A stretch of 44,797 nucleotides of DNA from Sulfurimonadaceae bacterium (lineage in GTDB: Bacteria; Campylobacterota; Campylobacteria; Campylobacterales; Sulfurimonadaceae), in the NCBI GenBank assembly GCA_041548245.1, contig JBFESZ010000003.1, forward strand, positions 1 through 44,797. The letters run 5' to 3'. Position numbers and translations under genes: made by a program. Under the pieces are notes generated by a model, which did not search any database, was not told the origin of the DNA, and saw only the letters and a list, made by a program, of their open reading frames with translations. Of the stretch, positions 1-13,039 are shown in pieces (position 1 is the stretch's first letter; each line of letters begins with the position of its first letter).

Positions 1-1346
1 GTAAAACTAAAAGAAAGGGTGTGTCTCTCTTTGGCAGGGTAGAAGTACATCACTGCGATGACTTTGAAGTAGTAATAGATCGAGACGAAGGCAGCCAAGA
101 TTCCCAGTAGGGCTAACCAGCTCAAGCCCGATTCAATTGCCGAGGTAAAGATGTAAAATTTACCTAAAAAACCGATGGTGGAAGGAAAACCGGCAAAGGA
201 GAGCATAAAGATTGACATCATAGCAGCAAGCAGAGGGTGTTGATGGGCAAAACCTTTTAACTCTTCATAGGTTGTACGTTCTGTATCCCATTTCCTGATA
301 TAAGAGAGTATGCCAAAGGCACCGACAGCCCCCAGAAAGTAAGCGATAAGATAAAAGATAATGGCAGGTGAAGAAGAGCTGCTTTCTGGTCCAGTTGATG
401 CCAGTGCAATCAGTAAGTATCCACTGTGGACAATGGATGAAGCGGCCAGCATCCTTTTGATATTTTGTTGTGCCAATGTAAGTAACGATCCGCCAATAAT
501 CGTGATGACGGCTATCACAATCAATAGCGGCTTAAAGGTATCGGCTAATGTCTGATAGTCTACCAAATACAGACGCAGTGCAATCGAAAAGATCGCAATT
601 TTGAATGTCCCGGCCATGAAGGCTGTGATAGGAAGCGAAGCACCGTCGTATACGTCCAGTGTCCAGGCTTGAAAAGGAACGGCAGAGATTTTGAACATCA
701 CGGTGATCATCATCAACATGCCGCCAACTGTGATCATATCGTAATGTTCATGTAGTTCGATGTAGTTTTTGATATCGCCTAGATGAGTTGAGCCGACCTG
801 GGCATAGACAAAGGCAATACCCAAAAGAAAAAATGCACCTGAGAAAGAGCCTAAAAGAAGATATTTGAATAAGGCTTCAGATGATCTGAGATTGTAACGG
901 TTAAGCCCAACAAGTATATAGACTGCTACAGATGCTGACTCCAGGGCAATAAAGGCCGTCATGAGTTCATTGGCCATGGACAGAAGCATCATAGAGAACA
1001 GGGCAAAAAGGATTAAAGCAAAAGACTCGGGCATAAAGAACTTTGTCGCCTGCATAAAGGCACGTCCTGAAGCAATCATCAAGAAGGCACCGATAAGAAA
1101 GAGCAGATTGAACAAGGATGCAAAACTATCAAAGCGGAGCATATGGTTGAAAATTTCGGCATGGACATTGAGACTAAAGAGCTCTCCAAGGTAGCTTGTC
1201 TGAAAGATAAGAGCAAATATGATGATCGCCATGGTGATATAGGAGAGCACAAAATTACTTAAACGTGTGAAAGCAGCAATCAGCATCATTGCGACAGCAC
1301 CAAGGCCTATAATAAGTAAAGAGATGGTGATATCACTATTTAACAT
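1..1346 (-). CDS. nuoN: NADH-quinone oxidoreductase subunit N (3' end truncated by window edge; absent from ORF track)
   Basis: ATG at 1346 with AGGAG upstream, overlapping the nuoM end; hydrophobic translation MLNSDITISLLIIG...FIALESAS...SSEALFKYLLLGS...FKISAVPFQAWTLDVYDGA...KRMLAASSIVHSGY...SFAGFPSTIGFLGKF. Confidence 0.95.
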   Translation of the reverse strand, partial: MLNSDITISLLIIGLGAVAMMLIAAFTRLSNFVLSYITMAIIIFALIFQTSYLGELFSLNVHAEIFNHMLRFDSFASLFNLLFLIGAFLMIASGRAFMQATKFFMPESFALILFALFSMMLLSMANELMTAFIALESASVAVYILVGLNRYNLRSSEALFKYLLLGSFSGAFFLLGIAFVYAQVGSTHLGDIKNYIELHEHYDMITVGGMLMMITVMFKISAVPFQAWTLDVYDGASLPITAFMAGTFKIAIFSIALRLYLVDYQTLADTFKPLLIVIAVITIIGGSLLTLAQQNIKRMLAASSIVHSGYLLIALASTGPESSSSSPAIIFYLIAYFLGAVGAFGILSYIRKWDTERTTYEELKGFAHQHPLLAAMMSIFMLSFAGFPSTIGFLGKFYIFTSAIESGLSWLALLGILAAFVSIYYYFKVIAVMYFYPAKERHTLSFSF

Positions 1347-2802
1347 GTCGTTTCTCCTGATAAGTATGCTTTTGGGCTGTGGGCTTTATCTTGTCAATAA
1401 AAAAAGAAGGGAAGATACCCATAGCCAAGATAAGCAGTGCCATAGGAAGGAGCGAAAGGAGCTCATAACTCCTCAGTTCGGAGAATGTTTTGAGTTTTTT
1501 GGGTCCGTAAAGAACTTTTTGCATGACATGAAAGACAAACATAATCGCAATCAGTAGGGTCGTGGCAGCGAGAAATCCATATATGATATCGGATTTGAAG
1601 GCACCAATAATGAGTAAAAGTTCAGAGACAAAACCGCCGGTCAAAGGAATGCCTACGATACTCAGTGCGAAAAAGGCGAAAAAGGCACTAAAAATAGGCG
1701 CTTGATAGACGATTCCACCTAAGGCATCGATATGGAGGTTCTGAGTACGTTTATAGACCATACCAAGCATCATAAAGAGTGCTGCAGAACTTAATGCATG
1801 AGAGGCTATCATATAAAAAGCACCGATATGGGCGTAGGTGTTAAAAGCAAATATTCCCATGACGATCAATGAGAGATGTGAAGCCGAAGAGTAGGCAAAG
1901 AGTTTTTTCAGTTCACTCTGTTTGATGGCTGCGATACCAAAGTATATCATTCCAAATAGTCCAAGGCTGATAAAGAAGTCTGCTATTTCAACGGCCAGCG
2001 TCTCAAAGAGTGTCAAAACAAATCGCCAGATCGCATAGACACCCAGTTTCGCCATCAAAGCTGACATGACGACAATCGCCCCGATAGGGGCGGCTGCATA
2101 GGACTGAGGCAGCCAGGTATGAAAAGGGAAGAGAGGGATCTTGATGCTAAAAGCAAAGATGAAGGCGACAAACAGAAGAAGTGTCGTACTTCTGTTTAAA
2201 TGCAGTGTCTGTAGGTCATTAAGCGAGAAGCTCCAGACCTGATATTCTTGAAAATTAGAATGACCAAGGTATAAGATGGCCATCAACATCAACAGTGATC
2301 CGAAGATAGTGTACATCGTGAATTTCATGCTCATGAAATTCTTATTCTCACGTCCGAAAAGACCGACCATAAAAAAGACAGGTAGGAGCATCGTCTCCCA
2401 AAAGAGGTAAAATAGAATGAGATCAAGTGCGAGTGCGGCACCGGTAAGTCCTCCATGTGCAATGAGAAGGTTTAGCCAGTACCCTTTCTTGTTTAGGTGC
2501 CAAAAAGAGAGATAAAGAAGAGGCATAATCAGATTGGTCATCATCACGATGATCACGGATATACCGTCTATGCCAATATGATATGAGATGCCATAAGCTT
2601 TTATCCACTCATGATCTTCAACAAACTGCATACCTTGGGTGGTCTCAAAATGTGTATACATCCAGATACTTAACATCATGGTGATGAGGGTCACGATAAA
2701 ACTTGCATACCGGATCATCTTTACATTCAAAGGAAGAAGGTATAAGAAAACAGCGGATAGAATAGGAAAGAATATAAGCAAAGTGAGTATGTTGTTTTCC
2801 AT
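1336..2802 (-). CDS. nuoM: NADH-quinone oxidoreductase subunit M
   Basis: GIDGIS, FYLFWE, IKIPLFPFHTWLP and AYSSASH antiporter-like subunit motifs; operon position. Confidence 0.96.
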   Translation of the reverse strand: MENNILTLLIFFPILSAVFLYLLPLNVKMIRYASFIVTLITMMLSIWMYTHFETTQGMQFVEDHEWIKAYGISYHIGIDGISVIIVMMTNLIMPLLYLSFWHLNKKGYWLNLLIAHGGLTGAALALDLILFYLFWETMLLPVFFMVGLFGRENKNFMSMKFTMYTIFGSLLMLMAILYLGHSNFQEYQVWSFSLNDLQTLHLNRSTTLLLFVAFIFAFSIKIPLFPFHTWLPQSYAAAPIGAIVVMSALMAKLGVYAIWRFVLTLFETLAVEIADFFISLGLFGMIYFGIAAIKQSELKKLFAYSSASHLSLIVMGIFAFNTYAHIGAFYMIASHALSSAALFMMLGMVYKRTQNLHIDALGGIVYQAPIFSAFFAFFALSIVGIPLTGGFVSELLLIIGAFKSDIIYGFLAATTLLIAIMFVFHVMQKVLYGPKKLKTFSELRSYELLSLLPMALLILAMGIFPSFFIDKIKPTAQKHTYQEKRHVK

Positions 2803-2804
2803 GC

Positions 2805-4685
2805 TTAGCCTTGAATACCTAAATAGATAAAGATAGAGACGATGCCGATACCCATGTACAGGGCATAGTAGCGGGCATTTCCATTTTGAACATAATCGCT
2901 GTAGTAGGAGAGCCTCTGGTAGGATGAGGCAATCTTGTGAATGAGACGATCAATGAGTTGTTCATCAAGAAAAACGATCAGTCGGCTTAGAAATCCGATT
3001 GGTCTGACAAACATCATAGTATAGCTCTTATCAATGTAGAACCTGTTTTTGATCCATCTTTCAACCACACCAAAGCTTGGATCGTCTGAACTGTTTTTAT
3101 AGTGAATAAAGGCCATAAGAATTCCCAGGAGTGAAGAAGAGATATTGACCAATAGCAATACCGTCTCATCAGAATGTGAAAGGTAGTGACGAATGTCAGG
3201 AAGGTTTAGCCAAATGGAGAAGTTCTCATTTCCGCCAAATAAAACAGGAAGATTGATAAAACCGCTCAAAAGGATGCCCAAGGCGAGTATAAAAAGTGTA
3301 AGCTTGATAAGCTGATTTTGAGAAGGCACTGCGTGTTCATGTTTCGCAGGTGCAATAAAGACGATAAGCAGGAGCCTGAACATATAGTAGCCTGTCAGTG
3401 CAGCAGTGACAAGAGAAACGGCATAGATATCGAAATGGCCACTTGCAAACAGATGGTTGATTATCGCGTCTTTTGAGAAGAAACCGCTAAAAGGCGGAAT
3501 CCCGCAGATAGCCAATGTCGCAAGGAGCATGATGGCAAACAAAAAAGGCATTGTGGATTTCAAGGCACCCATCTTTTTGATGTTTTGTTCATGATGCAGT
3601 GCCAAGATGATAGCACCTGCTCCCATGAATAGAAGTGCTTTGAAAAAGGCATGGGTGAAGACATGGAAGATACCATATGAGTATGCTCCCAGTCCTACTG
3701 CCATGAACATATAACCCAGTTGTGACATCGTTGAATAGGCAAGGATCTTTTTGATGTCATCCTGGCGCAAGGCGATCAGAGCGGCAAGTAGGGCAGAAAA
3801 AGAACCGATATAGGCAATAAAAAGACCGACCTCTTCACTGAGCGCATATAAAAAGTGGAACCTTGCTATCATGTAGACCCCAGCTGTAACCATCGTCGCC
3901 GCGTGGATCAAAGCTGACACCGGTGTCGGTCCGGCCATGGCATCGGGTAGCCAGACATAAAGTGGAATCTGCGCTGATTTCCCCATGGCTCCTATGAATA
4001 GAAGAACAGAGATTAATGAAATGAGCGAAGAGGGGATAAGATGGATATTGGCTTCGAGTGAAGCAAAGTCAAGACCCCTGTCTCCTAGATAGATGATTAA
4101 AAGAGAGAGTCCCGATATAAAACCGAAGTCACCGATACGGTTGAGGATAAAAGCCTTGTTGCCGGCTTGCACATTTTGTTCATCGCCAAAGTAATAGCTG
4201 ATTAGCAGGTAGGAGCATAGGCCTACACCCTCCCAGCCGATAAATAGCATGAAAGGGTTATCGGCAAGTATCAGTAAGAACATCGCTGCCATGAAAAGAT
4301 TAAACCATGCAAAGAAACGGGGGTAAGAGGGATCGTTATCCATATATGCATGAGCATAAAGATGGATGATGAATCCGACAGAGCTGACAAAGCTAAGCAT
4401 GGCAGCGCTGAGCGGATCAAGGAGTAGCGAGGCGTTTATGACAACTCCTTCGATATCCAACCAGGTGAAGATACTGTAGTAGAGATAAGTCTCACTGTTC
4501 AAAAGGGTATATATGAGTGAGATGGAACAGATCAGGCTAAGCAGCGGTCCACCCAGGCCAAGTAGCGGATAGATATTCGTGGCGATATCATCATTATATT
4601 TATTGTATAGGCTCAGAAACATAAGGGCTGCAGAAGAGAAAGCGACAGAGGCAATCACCCAGACAAGTAGTGAAGACTCAATCAT
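2805..4685 (-). CDS. nuoL: NADH-quinone oxidoreductase subunit L
   Basis: GWEGVGLCSYLLI, GKSAQIPLYVWLPDAMAGPTPVSALIHAATMV, HAFFKALLF. Confidence 0.97.
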   Translation of the reverse strand: MIESSLLVWVIASVAFSSAALMFLSLYNKYNDDIATNIYPLLGLGGPLLSLICSISLIYTLLNSETYLYYSIFTWLDIEGVVINASLLLDPLSAAMLSFVSSVGFIIHLYAHAYMDNDPSYPRFFAWFNLFMAAMFLLILADNPFMLFIGWEGVGLCSYLLISYYFGDEQNVQAGNKAFILNRIGDFGFISGLSLLIIYLGDRGLDFASLEANIHLIPSSLISLISVLLFIGAMGKSAQIPLYVWLPDAMAGPTPVSALIHAATMVTAGVYMIARFHFLYALSEEVGLFIAYIGSFSALLAALIALRQDDIKKILAYSTMSQLGYMFMAVGLGAYSYGIFHVFTHAFFKALLFMGAGAIILALHHEQNIKKMGALKSTMPFLFAIMLLATLAICGIPPFSGFFSKDAIINHLFASGHFDIYAVSLVTAALTGYYMFRLLLIVFIAPAKHEHAVPSQNQLIKLTLFILALGILLSGFINLPVLFGGNENFSIWLNLPDIRHYLSHSDETVLLLVNISSSLLGILMAFIHYKNSSDDPSFGVVERWIKNRFYIDKSYTMMFVRPIGFLSRLIVFLDEQLIDRLIHKIASSYQRLSYYSDYVQNGNARYYALYMGIGIVSIFIYLGIQG

Positions 4686-4995
4686 TATGTTTCTCCTGTT
4701 TTAAAAGATCAAAAAAGTTGGCATCAAGAGTGCGTGCATTTTTAAAGAGCATCACAAACAGTGCTAAAAAGATGGACGCTTCTACCGCAGCAATAGCAAT
4801 AATCATGATGGCCATGACCTGAGCATTCAAGTCTTCAAAATGATTTGACAAAGCGACAAGGATAAGGTTGACGGCATTAAGCATCAGTTCAATGGACATG
4901 TACATAACAAATATATTTCTACGGCTGATGACCCCGATAATGCCGATTGAGAAAAGCAGTATGGCCAGAATAATAAAATGACCGATATCAATCAC
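4678..4995 (-). CDS. nuoK: NADH-quinone oxidoreductase subunit K
   Basis: MSIELMLNAVN and AAVEAS motifs; start moved to GTG at 4995 behind an AAGGAG RBS. Confidence 0.93.
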   Translation of the reverse strand: MIDIGHFIILAILLFSIGIIGVISRRNIFVMYMSIELMLNAVNLILVALSNHFEDLNAQVMAIMIIAIAAVEASIFLALFVMLFKNARTLDANFFDLLKQEKHND

Positions 4996-5491
4996 GGCTC
5001 TTCTCCTTCTTAGCCAAGATGACAACTCCGATAAGCGCGACAAGAAGAAGTATGGAGATCATCTCAAAGGGGAACACCCAATCTGTATACAGCTTCATAC
5101 CAATCTCTTTTATCGAACCGAAATCATTAGGGCGCAGGCTTTTGAATCTCATTTGGTTGACAATGCTAATGAGGTAGAAGGTAAAGGGAGCAATAAGAAG
5201 AGTCGTAGCCAATATCCATCTTCTTTTATAGGGTTCATCAGGAAGGTTCTCTTCTTTGATGTTCAAAAACATGATGATAAACAAGAAGAGTGCGACAACG
5301 GCTCCTGCATAGATAATGATCTGAACCAGGAAGAGAAAACTTCCGCCTAGAAGAGCAAAGAGACCTGCAATACTTAAAAGGGTGACGATTAGGCTCAAAG
5401 CAGAGTTGATGGGTTGACGAAAATAGATCATGCCAACCGCACTGACTAATGTGGCAAAAGCCAAGACAAAAAAGATAATATTACTGAGCAA
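4988..5491 (-). CDS. nuoJ: NADH-quinone oxidoreductase subunit J
   Basis: QIIIYAGAVVALFLFIIMFL and PFEMISILLLVA; start moved to TTG at 5491 behind AAGGAG (the ORF-track extension overlaps nuoI). Confidence 0.93.
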   Translation of the reverse strand: MLSNIIFFVLAFATLVSAVGMIYFRQPINSALSLIVTLLSIAGLFALLGGSFLFLVQIIIYAGAVVALFLFIIMFLNIKEENLPDEPYKRRWILATTLLIAPFTFYLISIVNQMRFKSLRPNDFGSIKEIGMKLYTDWVFPFEMISILLLVALIGVVILAKKEKSRD

Positions 5492-5996
5492 GGCTGTTCT
5501 CCTTTCCAAAGGCACCCCGGTTTTGAAGAAGCCTCTCTTTGTTGATGACAAAGTCTTTACGTTCCATGGCAACAATAGAGAAGATGCCCGTATCCATACG
5601 GATCGCATCACAGGGACAGGCTTCAACACAGTAGCCGCAAAAGATGCACTCCAGAAGATCAATATCAAAACGCGCAGGCTGCTTCTCATCAACATCATCG
5701 AGTCGTTCCTCTGCCTCGATAAAGATGCAGTTTGAAGGACAGGCGGTTGCGCACATAAAACATGCGACACAACGAACAGTCCCATCGTCGCGTTTGGTAA
5801 GCCGGTGTAGACCGCGATAACGTTCAGTGATGTCTTCGGGCTGTTCTTCGGGGTACTGGCAGGTTGGGATGCAGGTGGTATTGTTGAGATTGGCTTTAAA
5901 ATGTTTCAGAGTGAGCTTCATACCGGTAAAGACAGACCAGATATAGCTTTTCTCTTTGAATGAATTTCCGTAACGTGGAACGACTTTTACACCCAT
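5481..5996 (-). CDS. nuoI: NADH-quinone oxidoreductase subunit I (2x[4Fe-4S])
   Basis: CVACFMCATACP and CIFCGYCVEACP; QYPEE...RYRGLH. Confidence 0.97.
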   Translation of the reverse strand: MGVKVVPRYGNSFKEKSYIWSVFTGMKLTLKHFKANLNNTTCIPTCQYPEEQPEDITERYRGLHRLTKRDDGTVRCVACFMCATACPSNCIFIEAEERLDDVDEKQPARFDIDLLECIFCGYCVEACPCDAIRMDTGIFSIVAMERKDFVINKERLLQNRGAFGKENSLAQ

Positions 5997-5997
5997 C

Positions 5998-7257
5998 TCA
6001 CACTCCTACAACGATTATTGCGGAGATGAAGATGTTGAACAGGGCCAAGGGAAGAAGTATCTTCCAACCAAGATGCTGCGTCTGGTCATACCTGAATCTT
6101 GGCAAGGTCCATCGTACCCATACAAAGATAAAGTTCATCACAAAGAGTTTGATGGTAAAACTAAGGATCTGCAATATCATCACGGTTAAAGCACTCTGTT
6201 GAGTGTTGAGTCCAGAATAAATCAGATAAAGGATAAGCGTCTCAATTCCAATAACAAAAAAAGTGATAAAAAAGGTGGCATACTTGGTCTCCAATCGGTG
6301 CGAAGGTGTACAGCTGTTATTGCGTTGCATCCATCTGATAAAGCTAAAGGCTATTATGGGAATCACAACCATAAGTCCGATAAGAATTGGGGTGAGGTTT
6401 CCATGCATGTTGTGGGTATTGAGCCAAGGGATCTGATAACCACCGAAAAACATGGTGACGATCAATGCGCTTGAAGCACTCATTGCAATGTACTCTCCCA
6501 TAAAGAAGAGTGCAAACTTCATAGCTGAGTATTCGGTGTGATAACCGGCAACAATCTCGCTTTCCCCTTCAGCAGCATCAAAGGGTGCTCGGTTGGTTTC
6601 AGCAAAGGCAGTGACGATAAAGATAAGGGCAGCAAGAGGCTGCATCACTATGCCCCATGCTGGAATAAACCCAAAGAGAAGTTCACCCTGCTGTCGGACC
6701 ATCTCATTTAGTGATATGCTTCCGTAGGTAATCAGCATGGAAACGACAGCCAGACCCATGGCTATTTCATAGGATATCACCTGTGAGGATGCCCGCAGAG
6801 CCCCCAAGATAGAGTACTTGTTGTGACTGGACCATCCGGCGATGATAATTCCGTAGACACCAAGACTGGTAAAGGCGAGGATCCATAATACTCCGAGTTC
6901 AACAGGTAGTGCCTGTATATGATAGGTGTAATGATCAAGGGTGATGTTATCTGCATAGGGAATGACCATAAAACATAAAAATGATGCGCCAAAGACAATG
7001 GATGGGGCCAAAATATAATAAAAGGTATGTTTGATATGCAGAGGATAGAACTCCTCCTTGAAAAGAAGTTTGAGCATATCAGCAATAGGTTGGATCAGGC
7101 CGCCTATGCGTATACCTTTGATATTACATCGATTTGGGCCCAAACGGTTCTGAATTAGTGCAGCCACACGCCTTTCGAGCCATACAAGCATCGGGATCGC
7201 TGCAACGGAGAACATAAGTGTCAAGACAATAGGAAAGAGGACCATAAAAGTATGCAC
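5998..7257 (-). CDS. nuoH: NADH-quinone oxidoreductase subunit H (long form)
   Basis: ERRVAALIQNRLGPN, QPIADMLKL, AETNRAPFD, GYHTEYS, PRFRYDQ; GTG start. Confidence 0.96.
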   Translation of the reverse strand: MHTFMVLFPIVLTLMFSVAAIPMLVWLERRVAALIQNRLGPNRCNIKGIRIGGLIQPIADMLKLLFKEEFYPLHIKHTFYYILAPSIVFGASFLCFMVIPYADNITLDHYTYHIQALPVELGVLWILAFTSLGVYGIIIAGWSSHNKYSILGALRASSQVISYEIAMGLAVVSMLITYGSISLNEMVRQQGELLFGFIPAWGIVMQPLAALIFIVTAFAETNRAPFDAAEGESEIVAGYHTEYSAMKFALFFMGEYIAMSASSALIVTMFFGGYQIPWLNTHNMHGNLTPILIGLMVVIPIIAFSFIRWMQRNNSCTPSHRLETKYATFFITFFVIGIETLILYLIYSGLNTQQSALTVMILQILSFTIKLFVMNFIFVWVRWTLPRFRYDQTQHLGWKILLPLALFNIFISAIIVVGV

Positions 7258-8768
7258 TAGAGCCGTCTCCCTTCTTCAGGTATAGCATCGTAGGAAAAAC
7301 CAAATTCATCTGAGAGCTTCTCATCCCATATGGCCTGAGGTGTTCCGGGTGTTGCATTGATTTGATGCAAGATTTGAAGAATACTCTTGCGTTCATTGCA
7401 TAGACCGGCTTCAAACCTCTGGATAATCCCATCTTCATTGATCAGTGTTCCCTCCTGTTCACTGTAAGAGGAAACGGGAATAAGAAGTTCATGGTTCTTA
7501 CAGTTTTCGAAACTGTGTGATATAAGATGTATCTGTGTCTTGTTGAGCATCATCTTCATCACCTCAGGAGTGTTTTGACACAAGAACTTATGTTGAAAGT
7601 TGATAACAACATGGGTTCTGTTTAGGGCTTCATTCAGTGCTTCCGGGCTGGTCTCAATCCCCAGTCTTTTAACGGCTTTCAAATTGGCTGCTCTGTCTTG
7701 TGAACGCAGCCATTCATCACCAAAATCCATGTCTACAAAGGGTTCGTGGTAGGCATTGAGTTCAAGTCCGAAGCGTTGGGCCAAAGCATGGATGGCATAA
7801 AGCTCTTCTGTTGACAAGGAAGGAGATGCAATTAAAAGAGGCCTTTCATCATGCAGATAACGAAGTAGGTAAGAGAGTGCGACATCTTCAGCGATGCAGC
7901 GCTGATGATAGACGAAATCGTCGAGTCGTTGGGTGTTCTCTTCTTTGTATGAAAGTCTGCCTTCATCGCAGATAAAATGACCATTTACCTGCTGGTTGAT
8001 ACGGGGGCGAAACCGGTAGATAGTATCAGATCTATACTTTTCCTGGTTGTGGTCGATAAAGATGTTGCACCCCTTGGCGCAACCGTGACAGATACCCTTG
8101 CTCGAATGCATGAACCAGACTCTTTGACGGAAACGGAAGTCTTTTGAGGTCAAAGCCCCTACCGGACAGAGGTCGATAATATTCATGGCATAAGGAGTCT
8201 GCATCTGTTGACCCGGAAGAGTGGAAACACGGGCATCATTCCCCCGTCCGATGATGGCAAGTTCATTTGTCTTTGTGATCTCTTGCGTAAAACGGGTACA
8301 GCGTGCACATAGGACACAGCGTTCCTGATCGAGGATAATGTTCTTACCGATGTCGAGTCTCTTCTCTTTAAGTTTCTTTTCCTCTTTTGGACGGCGGGAT
8401 TCGTTAAGACCAAACTGCATGTAGTAGTCTTGAAGTTTGCACTCGCCCGCCTGATCACAGATGGGGCAATCCACAGGATGGGAGAGCAGTTCAAGTTCCA
8501 AGATGGAGCGTTTGACCTTATTGATGTTCTCATCGTTGGTATAGACAACCATGTCTTTTTTGATGAGGGTGTCACAGGCGATCTGAGGACGTTTCTCTCC
8601 GACGATACCGACCATACACATACGGCAGTTCCCATCAGGTCCTAAGGCGTCATGGTAGCAAAAATGCGGGACATCGATGCCGTTTCTTAGTAAGACAGAA
8701 AGTAAAAGTTCGCCTTCTTGAGCCTGTATCATCTGACCGTCAACAATGAAACTGATTGTATCAGGCAT
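7257..8768 (-). CDS. nuoG: NADH-quinone oxidoreductase subunit G (short, 503 aa)
   Basis: PHFCYH..GNCRMC (N1b), HPVDCPICDQAGEC (N5), CVLCARC..CPVGAL (N4), CHGCAKGC..CDEGR (N7-like). Confidence 0.94.
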   Translation of the reverse strand: MPDTISFIVDGQMIQAQEGELLLSVLLRNGIDVPHFCYHDALGPDGNCRMCMVGIVGEKRPQIACDTLIKKDMVVYTNDENINKVKRSILELELLSHPVDCPICDQAGECKLQDYYMQFGLNESRRPKEEKKLKEKRLDIGKNIILDQERCVLCARCTRFTQEITKTNELAIIGRGNDARVSTLPGQQMQTPYAMNIIDLCPVGALTSKDFRFRQRVWFMHSSKGICHGCAKGCNIFIDHNQEKYRSDTIYRFRPRINQQVNGHFICDEGRLSYKEENTQRLDDFVYHQRCIAEDVALSYLLRYLHDERPLLIASPSLSTEELYAIHALAQRFGLELNAYHEPFVDMDFGDEWLRSQDRAANLKAVKRLGIETSPEALNEALNRTHVVINFQHKFLCQNTPEVMKMMLNKTQIHLISHSFENCKNHELLIPVSSYSEQEGTLINEDGIIQRFEAGLCNERKSILQILHQINATPGTPQAIWDEKLSDEFGFSYDAIPEEGRRL

Positions 8769-10026
8769 AAGTCACTCCTTGACTTTTTTCAATATAGGCT
8801 TCAAATTCATCTCTGAAACGTACGATGAAACCTTCAATAACCATAGCTACAGCAGGAGCAAAGACACAGATCGTCTTTCCGTTCATCGTCTTCGCAATAT
8901 CATTGAGAAGTTCGATATCGTCTCTTTTGGCTTTATAGCCGAGCATGTTGGAAATAATACCATCTACCCAGGCTGTCCCCTCTCTGCAGGGAGTACACTG
9001 GCCACAGGACTCATGGTGATAAAAGCTTAGAAGGTTTTTAAGAGCCGAGACCATACAGGTGTCCTCATCCATAACAATCATGCCCCCTGTACCCAGAGAT
9101 GAACCAATAGCACGCATGGACTCGTAGTCGAGTCTTGCTTCTTTGACCTCTTTTGCAGAGAGTACCGGCGTTGAAGCCCCTCCAGGAATAACAGCTTTGA
9201 GTTTTTTGCCATTTTTGACCCCTCCACCTATTCTATCGATAAACTCTTGCATCGACTCGCCAAAAGCCATTTCGTAAATACCCGGATTGTTGATATGGCC
9301 GCTCAGACCAAAAAGCAGAGTGCCGGGACTCTTTTCTGTCCCAAAAGCTCGGTAGGCTGAGGCCCCGTTGTTGATAATAAAGGGTACTGTCGCAATTGTC
9401 TCCACATTGTTCACCAGTGTCGGATTACCGAAAAAGTACTCTGGAGAGGGCACATGAGGCTTGAGCCGTGGATGACCACGGTTTCCTTCCAAAGATTCGA
9501 GCAATGCTGATTTCTCGCCACAGATATAGGCACCTGCACCACGGTGTACTGTGATATCCACACGGTAGTCGAAGCCTTTTACTCTATGGCCAAGAAGTCC
9601 CTCTTCGTAGGCCTCATCAATGGCCTTGTTCAAACGGTCAGCGAAGAACTTGTACTCGCCGCGGATATAGATATAGGCATCATGTGCTCCGATGGCGTAG
9701 CAGCTTAAGATGACACCTTCGATAAGAAGGTGGGGGTCATACTGAAGGATCTGTCTGTCTTTAAAGGTTCCCGGTTCGCTCTCGTCAGCATTGACAACAA
9801 GGTAGGATGTCTCTTCTTCCCGCGAGACAAGGCACCATTTGGGACCTGTAGGAGCACCTCCGCCCCCTTTGCCGCGCAACCCACTTTTTTCGATCTCGCT
9901 CTCTATGGCATAGGCAGGTTTTTTGAAGGCTTCATCCAGACTCTCATAGGCACCATGTCGCTTGGCAACTTGAAGCATATAAGCATTTTCAATATCAAAC
10001 CTTTGACTGACAATCCTTGTTATCAT
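8761..10026 (-). CDS. nuoF: Complex I flavoprotein subunit F with a variant nucleotide-binding pocket
   Basis: SGLRGKGGGG, NADESEPGTFKD, GAGAYICGE, NNVET, ESCGQCTPCREG and TIC (FMN and N3 ligands). Confidence 0.96.
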   Translation of the reverse strand: MITRIVSQRFDIENAYMLQVAKRHGAYESLDEAFKKPAYAIESEIEKSGLRGKGGGGAPTGPKWCLVSREEETSYLVVNADESEPGTFKDRQILQYDPHLLIEGVILSCYAIGAHDAYIYIRGEYKFFADRLNKAIDEAYEEGLLGHRVKGFDYRVDITVHRGAGAYICGEKSALLESLEGNRGHPRLKPHVPSPEYFFGNPTLVNNVETIATVPFIINNGASAYRAFGTEKSPGTLLFGLSGHINNPGIYEMAFGESMQEFIDRIGGGVKNGKKLKAVIPGGASTPVLSAKEVKEARLDYESMRAIGSSLGTGGMIVMDEDTCMVSALKNLLSFYHHESCGQCTPCREGTAWVDGIISNMLGYKAKRDDIELLNDIAKTMNGKTICVFAPAVAMVIEGFIVRFRDEFEAYIEKSQGVTYA

Positions 10027-10493
10027 GATAAGAACCTTCTAAGCAGTGCTTTTGTCGACTCAGGCGTAAGGTTTTCATAATACTCTTCATTCAAACAGAG
10101 CATAGGCGCTCCTCCGCAGGCGCCCAGGCACTCGACTTCACTAAGTTTAAAAAGCTCTGTACTTTCACCCACTTTGATGCCCAACTCATCCTCAATGGAT
10201 TTTAGAATATCAGCCTTACCGCAAAGTTCGCAGGAAAGGGTTTTGCAGACTTGAATATGATACTTGGCAACAGGTTCAAGATGGAACATTGTGTAAAAAG
10301 TAGCGACACCGTACAGATGTGCTTGCGGGACTTCAAGTCTCTTTGCCAGGTAAGCCATCGCCTCAGAGGAGATATATCCCTGCTGATACTGCACCATCCA
10401 GAGTGAAGGCAGAACCAGGGATTTTTTCTCGGGATAACGCGGTAGAAGATTTTGAAACTGTGCTTCATGCTCTTCATTGAAGACAAAACTCAT
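10023..10493 (-). CDS. nuoE: NADH-quinone oxidoreductase subunit E ([2Fe-2S])
   Basis: VATFYTMF, CKTLSC, ECLGACGGAP. Confidence 0.96.
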   Translation of the reverse strand: MSFVFNEEHEAQFQNLLPRYPEKKSLVLPSLWMVQYQQGYISSEAMAYLAKRLEVPQAHLYGVATFYTMFHLEPVAKYHIQVCKTLSCELCGKADILKSIEDELGIKVGESTELFKLSEVECLGACGGAPMLCLNEEYYENLTPESTKALLRRFLS

Positions 10494-12187
10494 CTATCCA
10501 TCTCCCCAGCGATGATATTGATGCTTCCTAGATTCAAGATGGCATCAGAGAGCATACTTCCTTCTACCATCGTACTGTAGGCGCTCATTGCCGAAAAGCT
10601 AGGTGCTTTTACCTTGACTTTGTGTGGATATCCACTTCCATTGGAGACGATGAAAAAACCAAGTTCGCCATTGGTCGCTTCAATGGAACTGTAATATTCC
10701 TGTGCAGGGACCTTGACCCCTTCATAGATCAGTTTGAACTGATTCATGGTCCCCTCAATACTTCCATAGACACTCTCTTTTTTGGGAAGAACAACGGATG
10801 GCTCATCTGCACAGATAGGCCCGTCGGGTATATTGCCAAGCAGCTGCTTCATGATGCGAAGGCTTTGTCTGATCTCTTCGAATCTGACCATGACCCTATC
10901 ATAAATATCGCCAACTGATCCTATGGCCACATCGAAGTCGAGTTGATCATAGAAATAGTAAGGGGTGTTGACACGCATATCGAAATTAACGCCTGAAGCC
11001 CTTAGGTTTGGCCCGCATAGCCCAAGTTTTATAGCCTGATCTGCTGAGACACTGCATATATTCTGTGTTCTATCGTGAAAGATGCGGTTATGCTCAACCA
11101 GGCTCAAGGCATCGGTGACACCATCTTCGATCTCTTTCATAATGATACGCAAATCGGCTTCGTAGCCTTCATAGAGGTCATAGCTCATCCCTCCTATACG
11201 CATATAAGAGTTGGTCAGTCTTGCCCCTGTGAGTTTAGAGAAGAAGGTATAGGCCGATTCTCTTGGGTTATACAAGTACCAGTAGTTCGTCAATGCTCCC
11301 ATATCTACCAGTTGGGCAGCAAGGCAGACGAGATGATTGATGATACGTGAGAGTTCCATAATCAGTACACGTACCATGATCGCCCTATCAGGCAGGGTGA
11401 TACCCAGCATCTCTTCAACCGTCTTTGCAAAAGCAATATTATTCGTCGTAGCTGAGCAGTAGTCGAGTCTGTCTGTATAGGGAATGATCTGGTTGTAGGT
11501 ATGATTTTCACAACTTTTTTCAAAGCCTCTGTGAAGATACCCAATCTCGGATACATTAGCAATGATCGTCTCTCCATCCATGGCGCAGAAGTTTCGGATT
11601 GTTCCGTGTGTAGCAGGGTGAGAAGGCCCTATGTTGATAAACATCAGGTCCCTGGAAGAGTCTGTAAAACTGCCATCTTGTTGTTTGGAGATCAGCCCTT
11701 TTTCAAAAAGCTTTTCATTCATTTGTGGCATCAAGTCCTGCGCTTGTGTACAGAACTGTCCTTTGGTTGTCGGATAATCTCGTCTGAGAGGATGTCCTTT
11801 AAACTGCCAATGGTTCAAAATACGTTGCAGGTTAGGGTGCCCCTCAAAGTTGATGCCATATTGATCATAACATTCACGCTCAAGCCAGTCTGCAGATGGA
11901 TAAATCGAAGTGACACTTGCACATTTCTCTTGCGAGAGATAGGCCTTTAATAGGATAAACTCTTTGAACTCCCGATCACGGATAATATAAACAAGAGCAA
12001 AACGAGAAGGATGGAAACCTGGATAATCAAGATAATCTACAACAGTAATGTCCAGAAGCATTGTCCCGCCTGATTCATAGGCACGCTTAACACTCTCATA
12101 AATCTGGTTCTCATCGACAAGAAGGGTGTTTGACTTTTCATTGAATTTGGCATCGGGGTAGTTTTTACGAAGGAGGTTAAGCATCAT
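10490..12187 (-). CDS. nuoCD: Fused NADH-quinone oxidoreductase subunit C/D
   Basis: NuoC part ([27 protein letters not shown]) in frame with NuoD part ([28 protein letters not shown]); start placed at ATG 12187 (12184 also possible) behind AGGA. Confidence 0.95.
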
Positions 12188-12686
12188 CGAGCTTTCCTGA
12201 GAACTCTTCTTTTCTCTCTTTGGAGAGAGAATCATGTTTAAGCTCTTTTTGGACCATCATGATAGCATCGAGGAGGGATTCTGGACGTGGTGGGCAACCA
12301 GCGACGTAGACATCAACAGGAATGATTTCATCAATGCCTTGGAGGGTAGTGTAGTTGTCGTAGAACCCACCGGAACAGGCACAAGCCCCCATGGAGACCA
12401 CCCATCTTGGTTCGGGCATTTGATCATAGATCTGCTTAAGTATGGGAGCTTGTTTGTAAGAAATTGTGCCTGCAACGATCAAAAGGTCCGCCTGTCGGGG
12501 CGAAAAACGTACGACTTCCGCGCCGAAGCGAGAAATATCATACTTACTTGCGGCTGTACTCATAAACTCGATTGCACAGCAGGCCGTACCAAAGACAAAA
12601 GGCCATAAAGAAGATTCTCTGGCCCAGTTGACGACATCATCAACCCGTGTTGTGATAACAGCGTCTCCCAAAAGCGCTACTCCCAT
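12177..12686 (-). CDS. nuoB: NADH-quinone oxidoreductase subunit B
   Basis: [30 protein letters not shown]. Confidence 0.97.
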
Positions 12687-13039
12687 TTTAGCGCTCCTTT
12701 TTTGTAGATGTACATCAAGCCGGCAAGTAGCAAGCCCATAAAGCTAAACATCTCGATAAGACCAAAAAAGCCAAGTTCGCGTACATTGACTGCCCATGGG
12801 AACATAAAGAGAGTCTCTACATCAAAAAGGATGAAAATGATGGCGACGAGATAGTATTTGATGTTAAAGCGTTCAAAGCTGTCTTTAACAGTAAGTCTGA
12901 TCCCGCTTTCATAGACTTCATTTTTGGCTTTGCCTTCACTCTTTATACGGCCCAATTTCCGTGTCATATGAATCATGAAAGGGATGAATATGAGCAGGAA
13001 GAGAATTGTACCGGATGAGAGGACCAAATCTGTATTCAT
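12677..13039 (-). CDS. nuoA: NADH-quinone oxidoreductase subunit A
   Basis: [29 protein letters not shown]. Confidence 0.96.

Follow-up and report, generated by a model that had tools for sequence, protein, structure and literature searches.

A Lys-bearing NuoF clade in Campylobacterota with a rebuilt nucleotide pocket: a candidate NADPH-accepting complex I

Complex I is, by textbook account, specific for NADH, and the engineers of E. coli NuoF E183 variants reportedly described an energy-converting NADPH:quinone oxidoreductase as an activity without a natural counterpart. In NuoF and Nqo1, Glu183/185 is reported to bind the adenosine ribose, and Phe70, Phe78 and Phe205 to stack the adenine (PMC4694087, PMC11677225). 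According to PMC10671435, E. coli complex I in which Gln or His replaces this Glu has a higher affinity for NADPH; each variant carries one laboratory-made change, and the replacements named there are Gln and His. The same source describes variants (E259K/R/G/Q and L279R) of R. capsulatus FdsB, a NuoF homolog. FdsB E259 and L279 are spaced from the conserved Lys just as E185 and F205 are (17 and 20 residues). Before the E259K change, FdsB is reported to have a kcat/KM of 29,708 with NAD+ and no detectable activity with NADP+, while E259K gives 81 and 68, respectively, so that NAD+ efficiency is about 366-fold down and discrimination between the two is abolished; with a KM of 4–5 mM, the variant is poor with both cofactors (PMC10671435). 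A single change alone is therefore not enough for a good NADPH enzyme. L279R, which lies at the Phe205 site, is reported to gain NADP+ activity too (PMC10671435).

HydB of the NADP+-dependent HydABC complex (PMC10021017) is a natural NADP+-using NuoF fold, in which the Glu is absent and a basic residue occupies the Phe205 site. In T. kivui HydB (8a6t_B), the two sites hold Ser320 and Arg340, the latter named as a nucleotide contact in the same source. HydB belongs to a soluble electron-bifurcating hydrogenase, not to complex I. Within the phylum Campylobacterota, the epsilon-type complex I (C. jejuni NuoX/Y, flavodoxin-driven; S. denitrificans type, with a GltD/NfnB-like subunit) is without NuoE and NuoF, in contrast to the operon studied here, which has true NuoE and NuoF. 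This operon lies at one end of the window (the whole 44,797-nt stretch of DNA that was analysed), with the following features:

3–13039, minus strand: operon nuoA-B-CD(fused)-E-F-G-H-I-J-K-L-M-N, assigned by Pfam; nuoN extends past the window end
10023–10493, minus strand: nuoE (P0002), 156 aa, thioredoxin-like [2Fe-2S] protein; PF01257 (E 4e-50), TIGR01958 (161 bits, cut-off 142)
8761–10026, minus strand: nuoF (P0001), 421 aa, complex I flavoprotein subunit with FMN and the N3 [4Fe-4S] cluster
7257–8768, minus strand: nuoG, short form (P0003), 503 aa; Pfam Fer2_4, NADH-G_4Fe-4S_3 and Fer4_Nqo3

The Pfam assignments give the nuoA–N order and bear out an earlier sequence-only reading that the operon is intact; nuoF adjoins nuoE and nuoG within it, and the gene order and NuoCD fusion are common to three related genomes. 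NuoF carries the Pfam domains PF01512 (E 3e-44), PF10589 (E 4e-26) and SLBB_2. It scores 483 bits against NCBIfam NF010120, above the cut-off of 389, while TIGR01959 (531 bits, cut-off 559) and NF008436 (359 bits, cut-off 749) fall below theirs. The top PDB match is P. denitrificans 8qby_F (E 3.8e-124), and the AF2 model (pLDDT 90.8) aligns with complex I NuoF chains at a TM of 0.93–0.95. Identity to canonical NuoF/Nqo1/NDUFV1 (8qby_F, T. thermophilus 2fug_1/3i9v_1 and E. coli) is 42–48% over the full length, and domains, FMN motifs, N3 cysteines, operon position and fold are shared. The operon partners are unlike the canonical ones in that NuoG is short and NuoH is long. The short NuoG keeps the N-terminal Fe-S domains and is missing most of the C-terminal molybdopterin-like domain, the TIGR01973 match being confined to positions 2–330 of 606; its orthologs are 457–535 aa long.

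The span singled out by the sequence-only reading (9440–9885) corresponds to NuoF residues 48–196, and it includes the pocket motifs listed here; the retained cluster ligands, given last, lie outside it:

9829–9873, minus strand: GKGGGGAPTGPKWCL, glycine-rich loop, NuoF residues 52–66
9769–9792, minus strand: NADESEPG, FMN/nicotinamide-side motif, retained, NuoF residues 79–86
9502–9528, minus strand: YICGEKSAL, NuoF residues 167–175, with the Lys172 codon AAA at 9511–9513
9448–9465, minus strand: LKPHVP, counterpart of the canonical K-P-P-F-P loop, NuoF residues 188–193
8866–9006, minus strand: N3 cluster cysteines C341, C344, C347 and C387 of NuoF, retained

The three altered motifs and the AAA codon were found as that reading had described them. 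A phmmer alignment with T. thermophilus Nqo1 (2fug_1) is gap-free across the pocket motifs and, with numbering counted from it, equates A58 with F70, K63 with K75, L66 with F78, K172 with E185, K189 with K202 and V192 with F205. BLASTP alignment with E. coli K-12 NuoF, also ungapped, places E183 opposite K172, so the Lys does stand at the E183/E185 position. In GKGGGGAPTGPKWCL, where the canonical GRGGAGF has become GKGGGGA, the changes are R-to-K53, A-to-G56, Phe70-to-Ala58 and Phe78-to-Leu66, with Lys63 retained. In YICGEKSAL, Ser173 replaces Thr beside Lys172, and in LKPHVP (K-P-H-V-P for K-P-P-F-P) the changes are Pro-to-His191 and Phe205-to-Val192, with Lys189 retained. Each of the four residues that the literature assigns to adenosine binding is changed, and the NADH-type adenosine pocket (Glu plus aromatics at the Phe70 and Phe205 sites) is absent from the window protein, with K172, A58 and V192 in its place. 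A loss of all three Phe had been proposed, and this holds for the F70 and F205 sites. The F78 site is uninformative: as a clade marker, Phe78-to-Leu is not diagnostic in these alignments because E. coli NuoF and 4 of the 48 canonical sequences also have Leu. As in HydB, the E185 site lacks an acidic residue; the Phe205 site holds neither Arg nor His but Val192, with His191 adjoining. The window NuoF stands at the weak end of its clade (Val192, Pro193, Cys65), with Lys172 and His191 as its only new basic residues.

The pocket was compared across 173 clade and 48 canonical sequences. The Glu site is K in 172 and R in one of the clade sequences, versus E in 48/48 canonical ones, and K53 and G56 are found in all 173. 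Position 58 is aromatic in 0/173 clade versus 47/48 canonical sequences, and position 192 in 2/173 versus 46/48. A K, R or H lies somewhere in 191–193 in 170/173 clade sequences and in none of the 48 canonical ones; counting K and R only, the clade figures are 136/173 for this stretch and 48/173 for position 192 itself. Nine columns are fixed differently in the two sets, six of them in the two pocket motifs, and net charge over five pocket positions runs from 0 to +4 in the clade versus −3 to 0 in the canonical set. Nearly all changes fixed in the clade fall in its adenosine sub-pocket, which has lost aromatics and gained about three positive charges. His185 is newly conserved in 163/173 clade sequences and His191 in 109/173, which points to rebuilding of the pocket rather than decay, and the sequence-level results together support a selected rebuilding. 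A pocket that has given up the usual mode of pyridine-dinucleotide binding, either degenerate or serving another donor (a protein partner or another nicotinamide compound), would be in keeping with the change of all four named adenosine-binding residues. This is very improbable, given that Lys63, Lys189, Tyr167, Glu84, NNVET and the FMN motifs are kept in 172–173 of the 173 sequences, that the changed positions show strong conservation of their own, and that the model is confident across the pocket blocks (pLDDT 73–89). The retention of the FMN/nicotinamide-side motifs and N3 cysteines, which the sequence-only reading had noted, extends across the clade, with N79, D81, E82, E84, G86 and all four cysteines invariant or nearly so.

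Among the 120 nearest database proteins, the Glu site is K in 119 and R in one. It is K or R in 54/54 orthologs in a sample of 401 Campylobacterota genomes and in 54/54 hits of a further homolog search. Lys or Arg was found there in none of 130 distant representatives with a motif matched by the search pattern; these came from a set of 150 (20 without a match, none listed above 55% identity, the clade itself absent) that serves as an outgroup count only. A locus search of genome contigs gave 79 distant NuoF/HydB loci and one clade member; of this outgroup sample, nine loci were dropped because no frame passed the ORF filter. The Lys-bearing proteins form a single monophyletic branch (SH-aLRT 100), so that the CGEK(S/T)/GKGGGG(A/G) signature defines one clade, and the substitutions are present throughout it rather than confined to this assembly. 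Its sister position is an open fork in the tree. Assembly error or decay is ruled out by the conservation across the clade.

Public names on identical proteins include Aliarcobacter, Sulfurospirillum and the Campylobacter hyointestinalis group, and starting a homolog search with the deepest member of the clade gave no intermediates and no names outside Campylobacterota. In S. multivorans, the operon of this kind is SMUL_0508-0520, one of two complex I operons. No earlier description of the substitution was found in the main texts of the literature searched. The nearest canonical relatives are mostly metagenomic proteins, with two Fornicata eukaryote entries.

On balance, and with modest confidence, we favour the reading that the clade NuoF serves a working 13-gene complex I as its flavoprotein and accepts NADPH, probably alongside NADH. 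The FMN and nicotinamide sites and the Fe-S wiring are ordinary, and the adenosine sub-pocket has been rebuilt. The Glu that otherwise hydrogen-bonds the adenosine ribose and repels a 2′-phosphate is replaced clade-wide by Lys, and extra His, Lys and Arg residues occur along the K-P-x-x-x loop and at the K-W-x position. The 2′-phosphate of NADPH may then be accepted through salt bridges instead of aromatic stacking, with NADPH oxidised at an efficiency comparable to or better than that of NADH. The result would be a proton-pumping dual NAD(P)H:menaquinone oxidoreductase, through which NADPH from NADP-type isocitrate dehydrogenase (and malic enzyme) could be fed directly into the quinone pool, with NADH still taken where it is made. 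The suggestion of NADPH use draws on analogy with the two engineered homologs and natural HydB. Compared with the E183 variants, the change here is natural, clade-wide and joined by several other pocket changes. The FdsB variants differ as laboratory mutants of a soluble enzyme, with millimolar KM and, as described in PMC10671435, no compensating changes, and HydB differs in having Ser rather than Lys at the Glu site and in keeping the Phe70-equivalent (Phe205 in HydB numbering).

A more specific claim can be put forward tentatively, namely that Campylobacterota, among them cultured Aliarcobacter, Sulfurospirillum and the Campylobacter fetus/hyointestinalis group, have a naturally occurring proton-pumping complex I with a preference for NADPH. 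The preference would come from Glu-to-Lys plus loss of the adenine-stacking aromatics, in contrast to the Ser/Gly/Ala plus Arg/His of NADP-dependent hydrogenase and Nfn-type relatives. Lys is also able to hydrogen-bond ribose hydroxyls, a counterpoint to an NADPH reading.

Outside the clade, 195 other family members were inspected. The Glu is kept in 167, and in 163 of these it is accompanied by an aromatic at the Phe205 site, while a non-acidic residue is paired with Arg or His at that site in 26/27. This pairing could serve as a cofactor-prediction rule for NuoF-like subunits of hydrogenases and formate dehydrogenases. It also bears on the possibility that NADH is still the preferred, physiological substrate and NADPH a poor one, the pocket having been remodelled for another way of binding NADH, such as a looser hold on the adenosine that speeds NAD+ release or lowers ROS. 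Every nicotinamide and FMN contact is kept, the Phe78 site is Leu in E. coli too, and the S. multivorans and A. butzleri operon is called a 'standard' or 'canonical' NADH enzyme (PMC4585668, PMC6682613), all of which would suit such a mode. We nevertheless regard it as rather unlikely: loss of the Glu outside the clade is coupled to Arg/His, as in NADP+-dependent HydB; the corresponding E-to-K change in FdsB costs most of the NAD+ efficiency and removes discrimination (PMC10671435); and about three added positive charges are hard to explain for NADH.

The genomes supply evidence on both sides of the same question. In two complete Aliarcobacter genomes (G009, G033), the Lys-bearing complex I is the only complex I found, and both also have a 550-aa pyruvate-dehydrogenase-type E2, as do 17 of the 21 Arcobacteraceae genomes with this NuoF. 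With a sole complex I beside such an E2, NADH oxidation is probably needed, and the Lys-bearing complex I has probably kept NADH use in some Aliarcobacter. No NDH-2-like gene was found in G009 or G065 with an E. coli Ndh protein query, which was used since the Pfam NDH2_C profile missed the E. coli control, and a search for NqrA gave sub-threshold matches only. Against NADH as the main substrate, a 2-oxoacid dehydrogenase E2 was found in 19 of the 54 genomes with a Lys-bearing NuoF and not in the other 35. The link is not tight either way, as 33 genomes have the E2 but not this NuoF. S. multivorans proteomics is reported to have barely detected the 'standard' complex I (PMC4585668), and no assay of any clade member's enzyme was found in the literature searched. 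The specificity switch of the sequence-only reading stands as far as a selected rebuilding of the pocket is concerned. A strictly non-NADH enzyme is unlikely in those Aliarcobacter with a sole complex I, and dual NAD(P)H use, with the NADPH part argued by analogy, fits better than an NADPH-only switch.

On the side of NADPH supply, a search for PntB (of the PntAB transhydrogenase) came up empty in the window's genome (95.95% complete) and in five Arcobacteraceae genomes, and a monomeric isocitrate dehydrogenase is present in 5/5 clade genomes tested. The NADP-type His/Arg/Arg (criteria of PMC13147460) are kept in the isocitrate dehydrogenase of the window's genome and of G009; in that of C. 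hyointestinalis, the NADP-type His is replaced by Ile. In the cell, the NADP+/NADPH couple lies about 100 mV below NAD+/NADH (PMC13147460), and NADPH oxidation by this complex, if true, would gain that extra driving force towards low-potential menaquinone as a thermodynamic rationale. Campylobacterota energy metabolism would then be modelled differently, with a TCA cycle yielding NADPH and no transhydrogenase found in the genomes tested, and NADPH-coupled bioenergetic engineering would have an evolved template. The claim is open to direct testing in species that are in culture and genetically tractable.

The family to which the window's genome belongs is one of sulfur-oxidising autotrophs, and the nearest named proteins to its NuoF are from Sulfurimonas and Sulfuricurvum MAGs. 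The enzyme might run mainly in reverse, with PMF-driven reduction of NADP+ by menaquinol providing NADPH for the reductive TCA cycle and biosynthesis in chemolithoautotrophs. The PntB result and the NADP-type isocitrate dehydrogenase of this genome would agree with such a role, and for S. denitrificans, reverse electron flow through complex I has been proposed as the source of NAD(P)H (bioRxiv 10.1101/717884). It is nonetheless improbable as the main function: the clade is equally conserved in heterotrophs and host-associated species (C. hyointestinalis group, Aliarcobacter), the more negative NADP+/NADPH couple makes the reverse reaction harder (PMC13147460), and only 2 of the 35 sampled genomes of the window's own family carry the Lys-bearing NuoF, which is thus not a core autotrophy gene. 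In addition, a second operon of the window's genome (contig C43) encodes an epsilon-type complex I, the type already proposed for that role, with two NuoG. Forward, dual NAD(P)H oxidation by the Lys-bearing enzyme, if true, would offer an explanation for genomes that keep two different complex I operons. The epsilon-type complex I of the window's genome includes a 678-aa NuoF-C-terminus/GltD-like NAD(P)H flavoprotein, which could itself already serve NADPH, a further counterpoint.

The nuoF gene that carries the finding lies in a minus-strand operon that is otherwise intact, as had been described from the sequence alone: Pfam assigns nuoA through nuoN in order, with NuoCD fused.

The nuo operon of the window and the motifs of NuoF
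13039 down to the window start, minus strand: operon nuoA-B-CD(fused)-E-F-G-H-I-J-K-L-M-N (Pfam)
8761–10026, minus strand: nuoF, 421 aa, carrying the finding
7257–8768: nuoG, 503 aa, most of the C-terminal molybdopterin-like domain missing
5998–7257: nuoH, encoding a long NuoH, Pfam match split over two stretches
4988–5785: longest ORF of nuoJ, 265 aa, overlapping nuoI (5481–5996) by ~300 bases
NuoF residues 52–66: GKGGGGAPTGPKWCL
NuoF residues 79–86: NADESEPG
NuoF residues 167–175: YICGEKSAL, with the Lys172 codon (AAA) at 9511–9513
NuoF residues 188–193: LKPHVP

The protein has the Nuo51 FMN, SLBB and N3 iron-sulfur domains (Pfam), and is encoded by the sole PF01512 gene of the genome (one copy; genome 95.95% complete). 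Its closest solved structures are NuoF chains of complex I (top 8qby_F, E 3.8e-124), and an AlphaFold2 model built from an alignment of 49 sequences has a mean pLDDT of 90.8 and TM scores of 0.93–0.95 against such chains.

The motifs in the translated gene are those given by the sequence-only reading, and phmmer aligned them without gaps to Nqo1 of Thermus thermophilus (A58 = Phe70, K63 = Lys75, L66 = Phe78, K172 = Glu185, K189 = Lys202, V192 = Phe205). BLASTP against E. coli K-12 NuoF (annotated genome) pairs K172 with Glu183, which places the lysine where it had been proposed to lie. In T. thermophilus, the adenine is stacked by Phe70, Phe78 and Phe205, while Glu185 holds the adenosine ribose (PMC4694087, PMC11677225). 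All three Phe are replaced, as proposed, but the change at Phe78 is within normal variation: E. coli NuoF itself has Leu there.

The pocket signature defines a clade of Campylobacterota NuoF. Orthologs occur in 54 of 401 genomes sampled evenly across the phylum (window's own counted; 55–100% identity), and all 54 carry CGEK(S/T)A and GKGGGG(A/G). Among the 120 nearest proteins in a database of 5.8 billion (63–100% identity, window's own counted), the Glu site is Lys in 119 and Arg in one, and a second search, started from the clade member that branches deepest, brought in 54 further proteins, every one with Lys. Of 150 distant cluster representatives (≤55% identity), 130 had a motif matching the pattern; Lys or Arg was found in none of these and Glu in 118. 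A maximum-likelihood tree, built from an alignment still containing the few trait columns, places the 35 clade members included on a single branch within canonical NuoF (SH-aLRT 100), the other tips being 48 canonical stand-alone NuoF and nine HydB/HoxF-type outgroups. Two NuoF labelled as from Fornicata, which are eukaryotes (P0167, P0244; Chilomastix, Dysnectes), share a weakly resolved group with the clade and keep the canonical Glu. Exact-sequence matches are named Campylobacter hyointestinalis, C. lanienae, C. iguaniorum, C. vicugnae, Arcobacter porcinus/Aliarcobacter cryaerophilus, Malaciobacter mytili, Sulfurospirillum, Sulfurovum and Sulfuricurvum; other named matches include Hydrogenimonas, Sulfurimonas and Thiomicrolovo. 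The observation is thus confirmed, and extends to a large clade with cultured members. A full-text literature search, with supplements and several key older papers outside its reach, returned no mention of the Glu-site substitution or of such a complex I linked naturally to NADPH.

A comparison of 173 distinct clade sequences with 48 canonical sequences shows fixed differences in only nine columns, and six of these lie in two pocket motifs: Arg to Lys53, Ala to Gly56, Phe to Ala/Gly58 and Phe to Leu66 in the glycine-rich loop, and Glu to Lys172 and Thr to Ser173 in the CGE motif. The canonical loop K-P-P-F-P has become K-P-(H/K/Q)-x-(K/P). An aromatic residue occupies the Phe70 site in 0/173 clade but 47/48 canonical sequences, and the Phe205 site in 2/173 against 46/48, whereas Lys or Arg occurs within positions 191–193 in 136/173 against 0/48. 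Net charge over five pocket positions is 0 to +4 in the clade and −3 to 0 in canonical proteins. On the nicotinamide/FMN side, Lys63, Glu84, Tyr167, Glu171, Lys189 and NNVET are retained in 172–173 of the 173 sequences, and the clade also conserves new His residues at positions 185 and 191. The pocket has been rebuilt under selection, with no decay.

Related systems were used to judge the cofactor. In FdsB, the NuoF homolog of Rhodobacter capsulatus formate dehydrogenase, Glu259/Lys276/Leu279 have the spacing of Glu185/Lys202/Phe205. For the wild type, a kcat/KM of 29,708 min−1 mM−1 is reported with NAD+, while activity with NADP+ was below detection; E259K gives 81 with NAD+ and 68 with NADP+ (min−1 mM−1), and L279R also gains NADP+ activity (PMC10671435). 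The same source cites raised NADPH affinity in E. coli complex I when the equivalent Glu is changed to Gln or His. HydB of the NADP+-using HydABC of Thermoanaerobacter kivui (PMC10021017) carries Ser320 in place of the Glu and, at the Phe205 site, Arg340 (8a6t_B), the latter listed as a nucleotide contact in the Figure 4 legend of that paper. In 195 family members outside the clade for which both sites are aligned (NuoF/HydB/HoxF relatives, in which kin are not independent), a Glu at E185 is accompanied by Phe, Tyr or Trp at F205 in 163/167, and a non-acidic residue by Arg or His in 26/27, the latter state occurring in at least three separate groups. The clade shows a third state, with Lys, nearby basic residues and no aromatic, the Phe70 aromatic also being gone. 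The two-state pairing of the other family members may help to predict from sequence whether NAD or NADP is used.

Thirteen Campylobacterota genomes (L142–L156), several from the window's family, encode NuoE-like/NuoF fusions of 449–563 aa (FVCGEATAL ... KPPHLSD), in which the Glu site reads Ala (or Gly/Thr) and the Phe205 site His. Their sequences suggest diaphorase subunits of NADP-linked hydrogenases or dehydrogenases.

Since the FdsB mutants, the natural NADP+ enzyme HydB and the family-wide pairing all point to NADPH, we lean, by analogy, towards a clade enzyme that would accept NADPH, probably using both NADH and NADPH, and run forward. That it prefers NADH is rather unlikely in the light of these comparisons, although reviews and a proteomics paper call the operon a canonical or standard NADH enzyme (PMC6682613, PMC4585668), and in two complete Aliarcobacter genomes the sole complex I is of the clade type, beside a pyruvate-dehydrogenase-type E2. 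The NADH made there needs oxidation somewhere, which favours dual use over NADPH alone. A search with E. coli Ndh recovered an NDH-2-like gene from three of five Arcobacteraceae genomes and none from the other two (G009, G065). Across the phylum sample, E2 is present in 19 of the 54 genomes with the clade enzyme and absent from 35, so the link to NADH-producing complexes is not tight. In Sulfurospirillum multivorans, the complex I of this operon was reported as barely detected under the conditions used (PMC4585668). Some other function altogether would be very surprising.

Clade operons share further features. NuoG is short (457–535 aa in three relatives), again with little of the C-terminal molybdopterin-like domain, and NuoH is unusually long (419–427 aa), its Pfam match likewise divided in two, alongside the NuoCD fusion (L158, L159, L160). 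The nuoJ orthologs are 164–173 aa and the Pfam match in the window's ORF begins at residue 115; the real start is probably near 5480–5500. An Aliarcobacter-type genome (G009, L158) has a citrate synthase gene (7434–8720; PF00285, E 7.5e-129) between nuoF and nuoG, and in a Sulfurospirillum-type genome (G338, L160) the operon is in two divergent halves, nuoABCDEF and nuoGHIJKLMN.

The window's genome carries a second, epsilon-type nuo operon (contig C43, L007, 2479–15505), of the type discussed for Sulfurimonas denitrificans (bioRxiv 10.1101/717884). It begins with nuoA-B-C-D and, after a short gap, encodes a 678-aa protein that joins a NuoF C-terminal Fe-S domain to a GltD/NfnB-like NAD(P)H flavoprotein; two NuoG, of 750 and 829 aa, and then nuoH onward follow. 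No PntB transhydrogenase subunit was found in this genome (95.95% complete) or in five Arcobacteraceae genomes. All five clade genomes tested have a monomeric isocitrate dehydrogenase, in which, on a residue-number mapping that is partly our presumption, the NADP-type His/Arg/Arg are kept in the window's genome and G009, and C. hyointestinalis has Ile at the His site. These three residues are the published criterion for the NADP-type enzyme (PMC13147460). A mainly reverse role for the clade complex, in NADP+ reduction, seems improbable; cellular potentials are given as about −380 mV for NADP+/NADPH and −280 mV for NAD+/NADH (PMC13147460), and NADPH would thus offer more driving force towards menaquinone.
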